From a virus: DNA of 31,290 nucleotides. The notes below the pieces were generated by a model. That model was not told the origin of the DNA. It did no database searches and saw only the letters and a program-made list of their open reading frames with translations. Positions 20,389 to 24,298 of the stretch are shown here, piece by piece; position 1 is the first letter of the stretch, and each line of letters starts with the position of its first letter. A program made the translations under genes and the position numbers. The DNA lies in the IMG/VR virus record IMGVR_UViG_3300018025_000052, positions 1 through 31,290 of that record; one strand, given 5' to 3'.

Positions 20389-20462
20389 TGGGTTGCCGGA
20401 CGGGAATCGAACCCGCGTAGCAAGAGCCACGGTCCTGCGCTCTACCACTGAGCTACCGGCAA
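20389..20462 (-). tRNA. tRNA-His(GUG) with encoded CCA and atypical features
   Basis: Acceptor TTGCCGG/CCGGCAA; D arm GCTC-AGTGGTA-GAGC; anticodon stem CAGGA/TCTTG with loop CC-GTG-GC; T arm GCGGG-TTCGATT-CCCGT; C73 then CCA. Confidence 0.85.
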
Positions 20463-20767: not shown

Positions 20768-21204
20768 GTGTTGTCTCCTGATTCAAATAAGGCTTCCTCT
20801 GCCTTGCGCCTTTTGAGTAGGCCAGCCAAGTGCTGTCCGCCTGCCATGTCCCACATCTCTAGCACCTTGGCTGCGCCGTGATAGTCTTTGTTGTTGAGCA
20901 GCCGGAGTGTTGTTGACTTCTCGAAATTTCCGCTTCCAGCATTGAACACGAAGTCCACAAGGCCATCGAACTCCGGCTGCGTTAGTGGAACATGCACGAC
21001 GCGGTTGACTTCGGATTCAGCCCATGCCACGTCTGAGAGTAGCCAAGCATCGGCTTGTTCCTGCGTGCAGGTCATGCCCTCGACCACTTTATAGGTATGC
21101 CCCCAACCAATGGTATAGACCTTTCCGTTGGCGTCCCAATAGGCTACAAGCCTGCATTGCTCGAAGTTTTCAGTTAACTTCATTCCGTCTTTGGAATATC
21201 GCAT
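20764..21204 (-). CDS. GH24 phage lysozyme (endolysin-type)
   Basis: FEQCRL.AY.D...YTIGWGHT (E-x8-D-x6-T), FD.LVDFVFNAG and GL..RR.AE. Confidence 0.92.
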   Translation of the reverse strand: MRYSKDGMKLTENFEQCRLVAYWDANGKVYTIGWGHTYKVVEGMTCTQEQADAWLLSDVAWAESEVNRVVHVPLTQPEFDGLVDFVFNAGSGNFEKSTTLRLLNNKDYHGAAKVLEMWDMAGGQHLAGLLKRRKAEEALFESGDNT

Positions 21205-22331
21205 ACTGCTTTTTCCTTCCCATCGTCTTCCTCGATCACTTGGCAGGCGGCTGGTACGATTTCGTCTGTGTTCTGTTCTTTGAATATGGCTGTAATGGCT
21301 TTGTCTTGTATGTCAAGAACGACCATGCCCGGCTTGCGTAGTTGGCCTGTGCCGATGATCGTTGCCAAAGGACTGACGATGTGTTCCTCGATCATGCGCT
21401 TGATGTTGCGAGCGCCGTGTTTCGGGTCAGACCCCTTGCTCAGAAACTCATTCAATTTCGTAGTCACGCCAAGTGTGAACACGAGTTGTTGTGGGGTGGG
21501 ACTGCGTTCGTTTGCAGCCATCACGACACTCAACCCGCGATTCCATACTTTCCAAACTTCGATGTTAATGATTCGGTTAATGGCCTCGGCGGTGAGAGGC
21601 TTGTATACCAGAATCTTGTTGATACGCCCCATGAACTCAGGGTCGAACTTTCGTTTCGCGGCGGAGGTAGCCTGCTTTGAAATGTCCCTGAAAGCCTCGA
21701 CGTAATCCCTAGCCTCGGCGAAGCCAATGGACTCTTGGTTGATGACCCGGCTACCTACGTTGCTGGTGAGAAAGATGAGCGCCCGCGTCAAGTCGATGCG
21801 CATATTGCGGCCATCGTACATCTCACCTTTGTCCAGAATGCCCAACAGAAGCTCCCACAGGCGTGGGCTGGCCTTCTCAATTTCATCGAAGAGTATTACG
21901 CTCACCTTCGGGCCTTCTTGCGTCCAGCCACGTTGTAGGTTCTCGGGACATAGAAGTGGGCGTGTACCCTTGTTTCCGGCCTCGGCGGGGTTGTAGTGCC
22001 CAGCATAGCCCGGTGGAGACCCTATAATGCGAGCTACTTGGTGATCTTCGGTATATTCTGCGCAGTTGATCTTTATCATGCAATCCGGGTCTCCGTGGAT
22101 TGCTTCGGCGATTGACTCTACGGTCAACGTCTTGCCAACCCCAGTCGGTCCCAAAAGTAAAGAATTAAACATTGGTTTAGACGGGTCTGACAGGCCAACC
22201 CACGCAACCTCGAATGACCTGCTAAGATCATTTAAGGCGTCGTCCTGACCCACTATGCGCTTGAAGAGCAAGTCTTCAAACTTTTGCCGCGCTTTGGTTT
22301 TAAGTGTCAGGTCCAGCGGAATGTTAGCCAT
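21180..22331 (-). CDS. Single-module Clp AAA+ ATPase (ClpA/ClpC D2-like) with IGF ClpP-docking loop
   Basis: IVGQ..A, GPTGVGKT, RIIGSPPGYAG, ILFDEIEKA, LTSNVG..ESIGF, FDPEFMGRI, GARNIKR. There is no N-domain or D1. Confidence 0.85.
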   Translation of the reverse strand: MANIPLDLTLKTKARQKFEDLLFKRIVGQDDALNDLSRSFEVAWVGLSDPSKPMFNSLLLGPTGVGKTLTVESIAEAIHGDPDCMIKINCAEYTEDHQVARIIGSPPGYAGHYNPAEAGNKGTRPLLCPENLQRGWTQEGPKVSVILFDEIEKASPRLWELLLGILDKGEMYDGRNMRIDLTRALIFLTSNVGSRVINQESIGFAEARDYVEAFRDISKQATSAAKRKFDPEFMGRINKILVYKPLTAEAINRIINIEVWKVWNRGLSVVMAANERSPTPQQLVFTLGVTTKLNEFLSKGSDPKHGARNIKRMIEEHIVSPLATIIGTGQLRKPGMVVLDIQDKAITAIFKEQNTDEIVPAACQVIEEDDGKEKAVCDIPKTE

Positions 22332-22367: not shown

Positions 22368-23063
22368 TTAAAATACTATCCTTAAAACCGGATTATGAAT
22401 TTTATAGACATAGCAATGTTTCCCCGGCAATTCAATCGAAATCAATTCTCCTTGGTCATACTTTGCTCGAAGTTTTTTCACGAACGGTTTGTAATCCCCA
22501 TTGTATTTCGTCCTAAGTGCGCGGGAATGATAAGTCCGTCCGGTTTCGGGGTCTGTGAATCCTCTGTCCTTTCCGCTGAGACCTATATATTCAAAATTGG
22601 ATGCTTTGTAGATTACACCGCTATGTCCGTGCATCGGGTCAGCATAACTAACAACAATTTTGATTTCAGGCGCATTCTTTTTAATCCAACGCAAGGTATA
22701 GCCGATCATGCGGCTTTCAGCGTTTTTCCCCACCGAATCAAGGAAAACTAATCGCCGTAATTCCAGTACCTCTTTTTCGGATTCTCCAAATCTTTTCCAA
22801 GCCGTAGTTGAAAATTGACCGTAAACAACCGCACCGACCAACGCGCCTTTATACGTGGCCGAAAAGCAGAAAGAAATTTTCACCCCATTCAAATTATGTG
22901 AGTAATGATGCTGTTCTACAAACATCCGAATATCCGAAAGTTTGCATTGCGCAATTACAAAATCTGTCGCTGAAATTTGGAGCGAAGGAGTCGGAATCGA
23001 ACCGCTACCTGACTGCTGGTTGACAGTCTGTCCTACCATTAAACGACCTCCGCACTTCTGCAA
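22368..23063 (-). CDS. Mom-like (GNAT-fold) DNA adenine-modification protein
   Basis: HHYS, LELRRL, KNAESRMI..L, IVVSYAD..GH.G.IYKASNF.Y.G match Mu Mom-family motifs. The start is ambiguous (TTG 23063 or ATG 23039). Confidence 0.78.
   Translation of the reverse strand: MQKCGGRLMVGQTVNQQSGSGSIPTPSLQISATDFVIAQCKLSDIRMFVEQHHYSHNLNGVKISFCFSATYKGALVGAVVYGQFSTTAWKRFGESEKEVLELRRLVFLDSVGKNAESRMIGYTLRWIKKNAPEIKIVVSYADPMHGHSGVIYKASNFEYIGLSGKDRGFTDPETGRTYHSRALRTKYNGDYKPFVKKLRAKYDQGELISIELPGKHCYVYKIHNPVLRIVF
22978..23053 (-). ncRNA. tRNA-like cloverleaf embedded in the 5' coding region of the Mom-like gene
   Basis: Acceptor GCGGAGG/CCTTCGC, then T and CCA; D arm GTTT-AATGGTA-GGAC; stem GACTG/CAGTC with an 8-nt loop TCAACCAG; T loop GGTTCGATTCC with a bulged stem. 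Confidence 0.7.
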
Positions 23064-23067
23064 ATTT

Positions 23068-23250
23068 TCATATTTTACCTTCGCACCAACAAGGCATCCA
23101 TATTAGCCCGTAGTGGGGGCACTTAAAGTCTTCGTGCTCCCACCACTGACCGCAATTAGGACAACGGTGTGGGTGAAGGGCCGTTCGTTCTTTCTTTACC
23201 GGCCCTTCTTTTGCGTCATTTGCTAGCTTCGCTCGTTTTACTGACGCCAT
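23068..23250 (-). CDS. Small Cys/His-rich zinc-ribbon-like protein
   Basis: HRCPNCG..WEH...CPH..PCWC, overlapping the recA 3' end. Confidence 0.55.
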   Translation of the reverse strand: MASVKRAKLANDAKEGPVKKERTALHPHRCPNCGQWWEHEDFKCPHYGLIWMPCWCEGKI

Positions 23251-24298
23251 CTTTGGCCTCCGTTTGTTTCAGGCGCTCTGTCATGGCTGTGAGAACTTTT
23301 TGGTACGTCTCAGTCACAGCCGGGGTATTCAAGGTGTCAATGGCGTTGCGCCGTCCTTGACCGAGGCGTTCGTTGTTAAAAGCGTACCATGCGCCCGATT
23401 TTTCTACTATACCATACTCCACGGCATTGTCAAGCAAATTCCCGGTCACGTCCAAACCCCGGTCAAACAGCAGGTCTATTTCAACTTCGCGGAACGGCGT
23501 CCCTACTTTGTTCTTTACGGCTTTGATGCGAGTCCTGTTTCCAATTATTGGAGCATCTTCGCCAGACCCTTCTTTGATTGCGCCGATGCGCCGCATGTCC
23601 AGCCGGACAGAGGCATAGAACTTCAAAGCACGTCCGCCGGTGGTGGTCTCCGGCGAGCCGAACATAACACCAATCTTTTCGCGGATTTGGTTGATAAATA
23701 TCACGACCGTCTTGCTCTTGTTGATCTTGCTCCGCAGCATCCGCATAGCCTGTGACATGAGCCTAGCCTGTAAGCCTACGTTGGCATCGCCGATCTCGCC
23801 GTCAAGCTCGGCTTGGGGCACCAGTGCGGCAACGGAGTCTACAACGATCACTCCGAAGGCGGCGGATTCGACAAGCATGTCCAAAATTCCAAGAGCTTCT
23901 TCTCCGCTGTCCGGCTGGCTAATCATGAGAGCTTTAACATTGACTCCGTTTGTCGATGCCCACTTCGGGTCTACGGAGTTTTCTGCGTCGATGTACGCGG
24001 CTAGCTCGCCCACAGCTTGTGCAGCGCCGACAATGTGCAGCGCGAGGGTGGTCTTGCCGCTGGCTTCTGGTCCGAAGATTTCGATGATGCGTCCTCGGGG
24101 TACTCCGCCTATACCGAGAAGATCGTGATCGACGCTCCAAATGCCGGTAGGTATATGCGGCATCGGTATGCCTAGTTGTCTGGCCATAGAGAAGATCGCT
24201 CCCTTGCCGTACTTCTCTTCAACTTTCCCAAAAACTTGACTGGCTGCTTTCAGCTTGTCCTGTTTGGTTTGCGGTGTTTCGACAGGTACGTCGCTCAT
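23216..24298 (-). CDS. recA: RecA recombinase
   Basis: GGVPRGRIIEIFGPEASGKTT, IVVDSVAALVP, GLQARLMSQAMR, FINQIREKIGVMFGSPETTTGGRALKFYASVR. Confidence 0.98.
   Translation of the reverse strand: MSDVPVETPQTKQDKLKAASQVFGKVEEKYGKGAIFSMARQLGIPMPHIPTGIWSVDHDLLGIGGVPRGRIIEIFGPEASGKTTLALHIVGAAQAVGELAAYIDAENSVDPKWASTNGVNVKALMISQPDSGEEALGILDMLVESAAFGVIVVDSVAALVPQAELDGEIGDANVGLQARLMSQAMRMLRSKINKSKTVVIFINQIREKIGVMFGSPETTTGGRALKFYASVRLDMRRIGAIKEGSGEDAPIIGNRTRIKAVKNKVGTPFREVEIDLLFDRGLDVTGNLLDNAVEYGIVEKSGAWYAFNNERLGQGRRNAIDTLNTPAVTETYQKVLTAMTERLKQTEAKDGVSKTSEASK

Follow-up and report, generated by a model that had tools for sequence, protein, structure and literature searches.

The Mom protein of phage Mu transfers glycine from Gly-tRNAGly to the N6 of adenine in double-stranded DNA, and the adduct then rearranges on the base (Silva et al., 2026, preprint 2023; PMC13219725). 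All three tRNAGly isoacceptors of E. coli work in this reaction while Gly-tRNAAla does not, and the use of tRNAGly off the ribosome and free of EF-Tu has a staphylococcal precedent (PMC13219725). This work describes a tRNA-Gly-like RNA of 76 nucleotides (nt) that lies in frame within the 5' part of a Mom-like gene on the IMG/VR viral contig IMGVR_UViG_3300018025_000052. The whole analysed stretch of this contig (31,290 nt, with an estimated completeness of about one third) is referred to as the window. Mu Mom (PDB 8bv8) belongs to the same family as the window Mom (PF25680), the equivalents of its residues R111 and S124 are found in the window Mom, and its co-substrate is a glycine tRNA. Unlike the window phage, which has its own tRNA-like element, Mu relies on scavenged host tRNAs. 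No trace of the element was found in the com-mom region of Mu, and no phage-encoded or embedded tRNA is mentioned in PMC13219725.

A locus that is closer by description is known from bacteria. The ssrA islands of Dehalococcoides and a marine fosmid contain a 76-bp tRNA-Gly-like locus in the first 150 bp of a mom homologue (McMurdie et al., 2011; PMC3146451). Sixteen island copies have been published, and the locus is labelled pseudo-tRNA by annotation pipelines (PMC3146451). No function was proposed in 2011 because the co-substrate of Mom was then unknown. The locus is likewise a conserved 76-bp tRNA-Gly-like cloverleaf in the 5' coding part of Mom, its likeness to the window element being one of description only. 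The Dehalococcoides copies belong to bacterial integrative islands, whereas the window copy comes from a phage contig, and it differs further in its CAACCA loop and in a D loop that contains a possible start codon.

The non-proteinogenic tRNA-Gly species of staphylococci, as far as they are described in PMC13219725, are donors for the peptidoglycan transferases FemX, FemA, and FemB (Stewart, Roberts & Strominger, 1971; Roberts, 1972, both cited in PMC13219725). By that description, the principle shared with the window is an altered glycine acceptor that serves an aminoacyl transferase of the GNAT type off the ribosome, which is an analogy and not common descent. The staphylococcal tRNAs described there have free-standing genes, a 7-nt anticodon loop, and base substitutions in the T stem, whereas the window element has a 6-nt loop and a bulged A and is located in frame within the gene of the enzyme itself.

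Two further comparisons concern the position of the element within a message. The mom gene of Mu is toxic, and its expression is governed by RNA structure at its translation start. This control also involves the zinc-finger protein Com, which has 62 amino acids (aa) and is encoded directly upstream of mom in the Mu annotation. The Mu com-mom region therefore resembles the window in having a toxic mom with RNA structure over its start and a gene for a small zinc-binding protein directly upstream. However, the structure is a hairpin in Mu and a whole cloverleaf in the window, and the likeness of the corresponding window open reading frame (ORF) of 60 aa to Com is marginal. Modules that resemble tRNA are also cut from longer transcripts by RNase P and RNase Z, as in mascRNA from MALAT1 and in the tRNA punctuation of mitochondria. 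These share with the window a tRNA-shaped module in a longer RNA, where excision settles the fate of the flanking RNA, but they are eukaryotic or organellar, untranslated, and without a link to an enzyme that uses tRNA. The literature search returned no paper that joins the mom-embedded tRNA-like locus with the use of glycine tRNA by Mom. The element brings together two known things, namely the tRNA dependence of Mom and the non-ribosomal tRNA-Gly donors, and the unusual addition is that the RNA is also translated.

The tRNA-Gly-like element in the window

The element spans positions 23053-22978 and lies, as do all features of the window described in this work, on the minus strand. The acceptor stem of 7 bp (GCGGAGG/CCTTCGC; 23053-23047 with 22988-22982) includes one G.U pair. 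The D arm is GTTT-AATGGTA-GGAC (23044-23030). The anticodon arm is GACTGT-CAACCA-GCAGTC (23028-23011), with a 6-bp stem that closes with a U.G pair and the loop CAACCA at 23022-23017. The T arm is AGCGG-TTCGATT-CCG[A]CT (23006-22989). On the 3' side of the T stem one A (22991) is bulged, between pairs 51:63 and 50:64. U73 is located at 22981 and is followed by an encoded CCA (22980-22978).

The Mom-associated tRNA-Gly-like family was defined in this analysis by the covariance models R1 and R2. R2 was built without the window element and the L003 group, using only related elements of other contigs. It scored the cloverleaf that had been read from the window sequence at 71.8 bits (E ~1e-13) with 22 of 22 pairs formed, compared with 50-61 bits for ordinary phage tRNA-Gly and 33 bits for the tRNA-His of the window. 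The window cloverleaf is real, far beyond chance. Only the family-specific models single it out: ARAGORN made no call for it and reported only a tRNA-His elsewhere in the window, the Rfam tRNA model (RF00005) gave it 20.5 bits against a gathering score of 29, and its folding energy is unremarkable (z = -1.03).

The element departs from a canonical tRNA in two respects: the anticodon loop has 6 nt (8 if the U.G pair opens) and not 7, and the T stem is bulged. Both features belong to the family. The window copy shares the CCG[A]CT bulge and the 6-bp stem with a 6-nt loop that contains CCA, and the bulged A is a family hallmark that is present in all 30 distinct members and adjoined by covarying pairs. 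The region of pairs 51:63 and 50:64 is a contact zone of EF-Tu. The identity elements of bacterial tRNA-Gly are G1:C72, C2:G71, G3:C70, U73, C35, and C36, and the window copy has the complete set.

The gene that contains the element is a Mom-like ORF at 22368-23063, which encodes 231 aa if the TTG at 23063 is its start. It matches Pfam Mom PF25680 at 137.6 bits (cut-off 27.1; E 6e-40). The match is limited to residues 35-223, which places the beginning of the Mom domain (residue 30-35) right after the CCA. The protein also matches PHROG 1384 and PDB 8bv8 (E 6e-12), and its ELRR and AESR motifs align with the catalytic R111 and S124 of Mu Mom when the 9-residue offset of the crystal chain is allowed for.

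An earlier reading made from the letters of the window (the sequence-only reading) had placed a 76-nt cloverleaf ending in CCA inside the frame of a Mom-like gene and had judged it unlikely to decode normally. The R2 score and the Pfam match bear out the cloverleaf and the identity of the gene, and the 6-nt loop and bulged T stem agree with the judgement on decoding. Its anticodon loop of 8 nt has to be replaced by the 6-bp stem and 6-nt loop that covariation in the family gives. The bulge that it had noticed is present, but the presence of the bulge in every distinct member contradicts its being taken as a sign of decay.

Distribution of the element among Mom loci

The same element was identified at about 35 Mom loci on viral contigs, metagenome contigs, and contigs of metagenome-assembled genomes (MAGs). 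The closest relative of the window (L170, Mom 77% identical) also carries it. Compared with the window, the RNA of L170 has a compensatory change from A5:U68 to G5:C68 and is shorter by a net 3 nt, with the reading frame kept. The high-GC viral contigs L003-L006, whose Mom is distant (36% identity), have a tRNA-like sequence at the equivalent junction that ends in TCCA immediately 5' of the Mom N-terminus. L056 and L076, which belong to another Mom clade, carry the element as well. A search with the 5' pattern of the element matched otherwise ordinary phage tRNA-Gly genes together with one further Mom-linked copy, L096/L101. When the Mom of L096/L101 was used as the query, a second Mom clade was obtained in which a cloverleaf lies directly upstream in 22 of 41 loci (15 after the removal of near-duplicates). 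Among the MAG contigs, where loci were found with the narrower Mom alignment A5, 14 of the 19 Mom loci carry the element, and they come from Planctomycetota, Verrucomicrobiota, Bacteroidota, Actinomycetota, Pseudomonadota, and a bacterium of the candidate phyla radiation (CPR).

The 5' form of the element occurs in at least three places in the Mom tree. It adjoins or enters Mom in the window, L170, the L003 group, L056, and L076. In the window it is in frame inside the Mom ORF and stops one base before the Mom domain, which starts 77 nt from nucleotide 1 of the tRNA as in most members.

Three Mom ORFs carry diverged tRNA-Gly-like elements in frame at their 3' end, at 3567-3635 in L007, at 1109-1184 in L080, and in the final ~70 nt of the ORF in L074. 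A stop codon follows right after the CCA in these three loci, and the bulged A and the glycine acceptor set are retained, while the D arm is mostly lost in L007. AT-rich marine Mom genes with ..LEPIE.. tails were searched for hidden tRNA-like tails at the 3' end, and none was found by eye or by R1. A blastn search against the phage collection returned short Mom-coding matches in Klebsiella jumbo phages only and no tRNA-like match.

Selection at the RNA level

Thirty distinct copies were aligned by fitting them to the model, an alignment that is hence biased towards pairing. In this alignment 98.6% of the pair cells are paired, compared with 38-49% when the partners are slid, and 18 of the 22 pairs show changes on both sides, a number reached by none of 500 shuffles. 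A MAFFT alignment of 16 copies that involved no model fitting gives a similar picture, with 92.3% of the pair cells paired (42-49% with slid partners) and changes on both sides in 17 of the 22 pairs, which no shuffle matches. The MAFFT test was also run without the lineage of the window. In addition, position 18 of the D loop and position 55 of the T loop covary (G/U versus A/G, 19:8; Fisher 4e-6, with no correction for phylogeny), which suggests a preserved elbow of an L-shaped tRNA.

The positions by which a glycine tRNA is recognised are nearly fixed. G1:C72, G3:C70, U73, and C35 are found in 30 of 30 copies, C2:G71 and C36 in 29 of 30, and an encoded CCA in 23 of 30. C2 and G71 are almost invariant although they are third-codon positions, and the CC of the loop is retained despite the differing peptides that are encoded there in the window, L003, L162, and L165. 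The family anticodon loop is NUUCCA on a 6-bp stem. The sixth pair of this stem covaries (U-A, U-G, C-G, and others), hence the loop has 6 nt.

The element is also better conserved than the gene that follows it. Between related contigs the identities of element and Mom are 100% versus 84-92% in one comparison and 83-88% versus 48-77% in another, and the DNA upstream of the element is mostly unrelated. The element is the best-conserved segment. On these comparisons, the element is under selection at the RNA level and is a functional RNA, not a remnant. The covariation across homologues that the sequence-only reading had called for is thus present, and its fallback of a decayed tRNA remnant is contradicted by this covariation and by conservation above that of Mom.

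A remnant of this kind, the scar of an attachment site, or a decoy for an anticodon nuclease would fit with the absence of a call by standard tRNA finders. Phages frequently integrate into tRNA genes and frequently carry tRNAs, which would also suit such an origin. However, the element is full length and covaries, and in contigs that are unrelated and differ in GC content its conservation exceeds that of the neighbouring gene. Its acceptor stems differ between lineages by compensatory changes, which indicates that it was not copied from a host tRNA. The decoy, which the sequence-only reading had also considered, fails on the 6-nt loop that gives a nuclease no standard anticodon. We find this group of explanations hardly credible, and the attachment-site scar (attP) and the decoy were rejected.

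It is also very improbable that the element is a working tRNA that simply lies beside mom, be it an ordinary tRNA-Gly or a suppressor of +1 frameshifts whose loop is enlarged. The glycine identity set and the CCA end would suit it. Suppressor tRNAs of the sufD type have an 8-nt loop, and the window arm gives such a loop if it is read with a 5-bp stem. The covariation of the sixth pair points instead to the 6-nt loop, the T-stem bulge is invariant, and the general tRNA model gives the family members only 20-36 bits. The strict in-frame fusion to Mom would also be left unexplained by a decoding tRNA. The reading as a frameshift-suppressor tRNA was rejected.

Translation of the element and its leader peptide

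The reading frame is open through the window element and gives ..CGGRLMVGQTVNQQSGSGSIPTPSLQ.. as the encoded peptide. A single open frame contains the element in 31 of 32 loci and extends into Mom over 116-229 codons, with only one locus below 178, and the other two frames have stops within a few codons in almost all loci. In nearly all loci of the 5' type, the start codon either precedes nucleotide 1 by 7-16 nt or belongs to the D loop. The upstream start is ATG or GTG, often preceded by a purine-rich stretch, and a start codon right at the Mom domain is found in few loci. These features indicate that the element is translated, as the sequence-only reading had proposed.

The window has two candidate starts. 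The first is a TTG (23061-23063) located 10 nt upstream of nucleotide 1, whose position and frame are those of an ATG or GTG in L056, L076, L159, L152, L164, and L166; no good Shine-Dalgarno sequence was found before it. The second is an ATG in the D loop (23037-23039) that is in frame with Mom, with GGAGG 7 nt upstream. A D-loop ATG is the sole in-frame start in L109 and the sole one upstream of the Mom domain in L103. The GGAGG (23047-23051) resembles a Shine-Dalgarno sequence, belongs to the 5' strand of the acceptor stem and is paired in the folded cloverleaf.

Two details of the sequence-only reading were found to apply only in part. The 10-codon mini-ORF MKICRSAEVV* (23039-23071), which overlaps the stop of the upstream gene (ATGA) and the D-loop ATG (TAATG), is present in the window. 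Neither the mini-ORF nor the TAATG coupling occurs in L170, where the D loop lacks ATG and TAA and an ATG located 13 nt before the cloverleaf is the start. The GSIP motif encoded by the T loop is conserved in part of the family, and the T loop is translated in a different frame in the L003 group.

A different function can be considered for the translated element, in which what functions is the N-terminal peptide (..GSGSIPTPSLQ), the RNA fold being left over from a tRNA gene that gave rise to the leader. The frame that stays open in 31 of 32 loci agrees with this, and so does a sister clade without the cloverleaf (L110-L116, L119-L121, L124, L125, L129, L130, and L134). The loci of this clade have a leader, DLF..ERIxPxSP, located 45 nt before the Mom ATG. 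The leader (DLF..RIxPxSP) is homologous to the peptide encoded by the tRNA-like element and is under purifying selection, with a ratio of nonsynonymous to synonymous substitution rates (dN/dS) of ~0.24 compared with 0.02 in the core; one serine codon has switched codon family. This clade seems to have turned part of what was once a tRNA gene into protein. Where the cloverleaf is kept, however, compensatory changes in the stems affect the peptide on both sides, the synonymous sites stay frozen, and the L003 group reads the 3' half in a different frame. In the AlphaFold2 (AF2) model of the window Mom, the core is confident and the leader is predicted to be disordered (residues 1-22 with a predicted local distance difference test score, pLDDT, below 50), which also speaks against a functional peptide. 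We consider this explanation improbable.

The main rival to a released RNA is a tRNA mimic that acts purely in cis in the mom messenger RNA (mRNA). The fold would hide the Shine-Dalgarno sequence and the start and would throttle the toxic enzyme, and no charged RNA would be made. The mimic could be bound by Mom (autoregulation by substrate mimicry), bound by the zinc-ribbon protein, or cleaved by RNase P. The placement of nearly all 5'-type starts a short way before the cloverleaf or within the D loop and the pairing of the window GGAGG within the acceptor stem are as such an operator would have them. Mu mom with its start structure and the zinc-finger Com offers a parallel, and the window has a zinc-ribbon ORF of 60 aa in the position of Com. 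Mom is also selective for tRNAGly and could therefore recognise a mimic. Several observations weigh on the other side. C35, C36, U73, and the encoded CCA are conserved and would be unneeded by an operator, and the tertiary covariation of positions 18 and 55 points to the full L-shaped fold. The 3'-end elements of other lineages cannot hide the mom start, and their placement in L007, L080, and L074 is easier to reconcile with an RNA product than with a start-site operator. The similarity to Com is marginal, and no zinc-ribbon ORF was found in the L170 sequence, which starts at a contig end. We regard a purely cis-acting mimic as unlikely, though it is the strongest of the alternatives.

A proposed private glycyl donor for Mom

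We favour, with moderate confidence and on the strength of sequence comparison, the reading that the element is a private, non-ribosomal glycyl donor of Mom that would be cut from the mom mRNA, with excision competing with translation. This reading follows from the use of Gly-tRNAGly by Mu Mom and the glycine identity set of the element. It also follows from the combination of the identity set and CCA with a loop and T stem that are unfit for decoding, and from the tie to Mom genes across phyla.

The mom transcript would bear the cloverleaf at its translation start. In some transcripts, RNase P and the tRNA-processing enzymes of the 3' end would release a 76-nt RNA that ends in CCA, which the glycyl-tRNA synthetase (GlyRS) of the host would charge by way of the glycine identity set. 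The 6-nt loop and the bulged T stem would keep this RNA off the ribosome and probably away from EF-Tu, and the phage Mom would use the charged RNA as a glycyl donor to modify adenine N6 in DNA. We infer each of these steps, from excision and charging to the avoidance of EF-Tu, the use by Mom and the gating of its expression. The Shine-Dalgarno sequence and the start lie inside or just upstream of the cloverleaf, so that folding or excision and the translation of mom would be mutually exclusive on any one transcript. From this geometry, the tRNA-processing enzymes that cut the mRNA would gate the expression of Mom, as the sequence-only reading had suggested, and the exclusion would also limit the synthesis of the toxic enzyme.

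A fuller version of the private-donor reading can be put forward only tentatively. The same RNA would be both a translated leader and an excisable, chargeable tRNA co-substrate that is excluded from the ribosome. The balance of processing and ribosome loading would set the ratio of Mom to donor and keep the toxic modifier low, and the bulge would block EF-Tu and mark the RNA for Mom.

Several points count against a private donor. Since Mu Mom can use host tRNAs, Mom has no need of a private donor. The element was absent from the relatives of the window Mom at about 60% identity (L002, L008, L009, and L171-176), which makes it dispensable for the Mom clade of the window. The window loop CAACCA departs from the family NUUCCA, with AA at the start of the loop where the family has UU. 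The 6-nt loop and bulged T stem might impair GlyRS, RNase P, or the 3'-processing enzymes as well. Excision would destroy the mom message and would be a costly route to a tRNA. The purifying selection on the leader of the sister clade also implies that part of the sequence constraint may act on the protein.

Neighbouring genes and other observations

The zinc-ribbon ORF (23068-23250; 60 aa) is Com-like in position and size. It matches Pfam Zn_ribbon_3 weakly (E 0.008), and BLASTP relates it only marginally to Mu Com (E 0.002, with an alignment of 23 aa). No Com match was found in Pfam and no match in PHROGs, and L170 has no equivalent upstream ORF in its sequence, which begins at the contig end. 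At its end the RecA-like gene overlaps this ORF, to which the mini-ORF is coupled by the ATGA overlap. A promoter-like sequence, TTGACA-16-TATAGT (23406-23433; 11 of 12 consensus matches, with TG), was recognised by its match to the consensus alone. It is found within the RecA-like gene, towards its 3' end and ~350 nt before the cloverleaf, and could drive the zinc-ribbon ORF, the tRNA-like element, and mom. The other neighbours of the Mom module are a tRNA-His(GUG) (20389-20462), a Clp-type AAA+ ATPase with a single module (21180-22331), and the RecA homologue (23216-24298). No ParB-like gene is found beside the window Mom, unlike the cassettes with a 3' tRNA-like element.

Other tRNA-like genes were encountered during the searches. 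L089/L102 has a similar 5' half, and it was rejected as an unrelated odd tRNA beside a tmRNA on a record without Mom. The odd tRNA-like gene of L102 (1493-1570, minus strand) has an anticodon loop of ~13 nt and the discriminator A, and its neighbours on this viral record are a tRNA-Ile(AAU) and the tmRNA. In L066 a normal tRNA-Arg(UCU) (2055-2129) starts within the final codons of a Mom-like ORF, whose TAG stop sits in the 5' part of the tRNA. Such an arrangement hints at relatives of Mom that go with tRNAs for amino acids other than glycine. L159 and L161 are identical loci of Mom and tRNA-like element located ~50.8 kb apart on one MAG contig of 101.9 kb, and a third copy (L160) is on a contig of 50.8 kb. 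The longer contig probably consists of a phage genome of ~50.8 kb assembled head to tail.

Significance for the Mom family

What Mom uses as co-substrate was a puzzle for 40 years, until work with host tRNAGly gave the answer in 2023-2026. Should many Mom genes come with a glycine carrier of their own, a large part of the family would have a natural donor other than a translational tRNA. Such a carrier would be a second and independent case, after staphylococcal Fem, of a tRNA diverted from the ribosome, and the T-stem bulge is a candidate anti-determinant for EF-Tu. A tRNA-shaped RNA that is selected while it is translated is rare, and competition between excision and translation, if true, would be a new mode of control for a toxic gene. 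Annotation either overlooks the elements or calls them pseudo-tRNA, and it assigns odd N-termini to the Mom ORFs around them. The RNA could also improve the hypermodification of DNA by Mom enzymes in vitro or in heterologous hosts.

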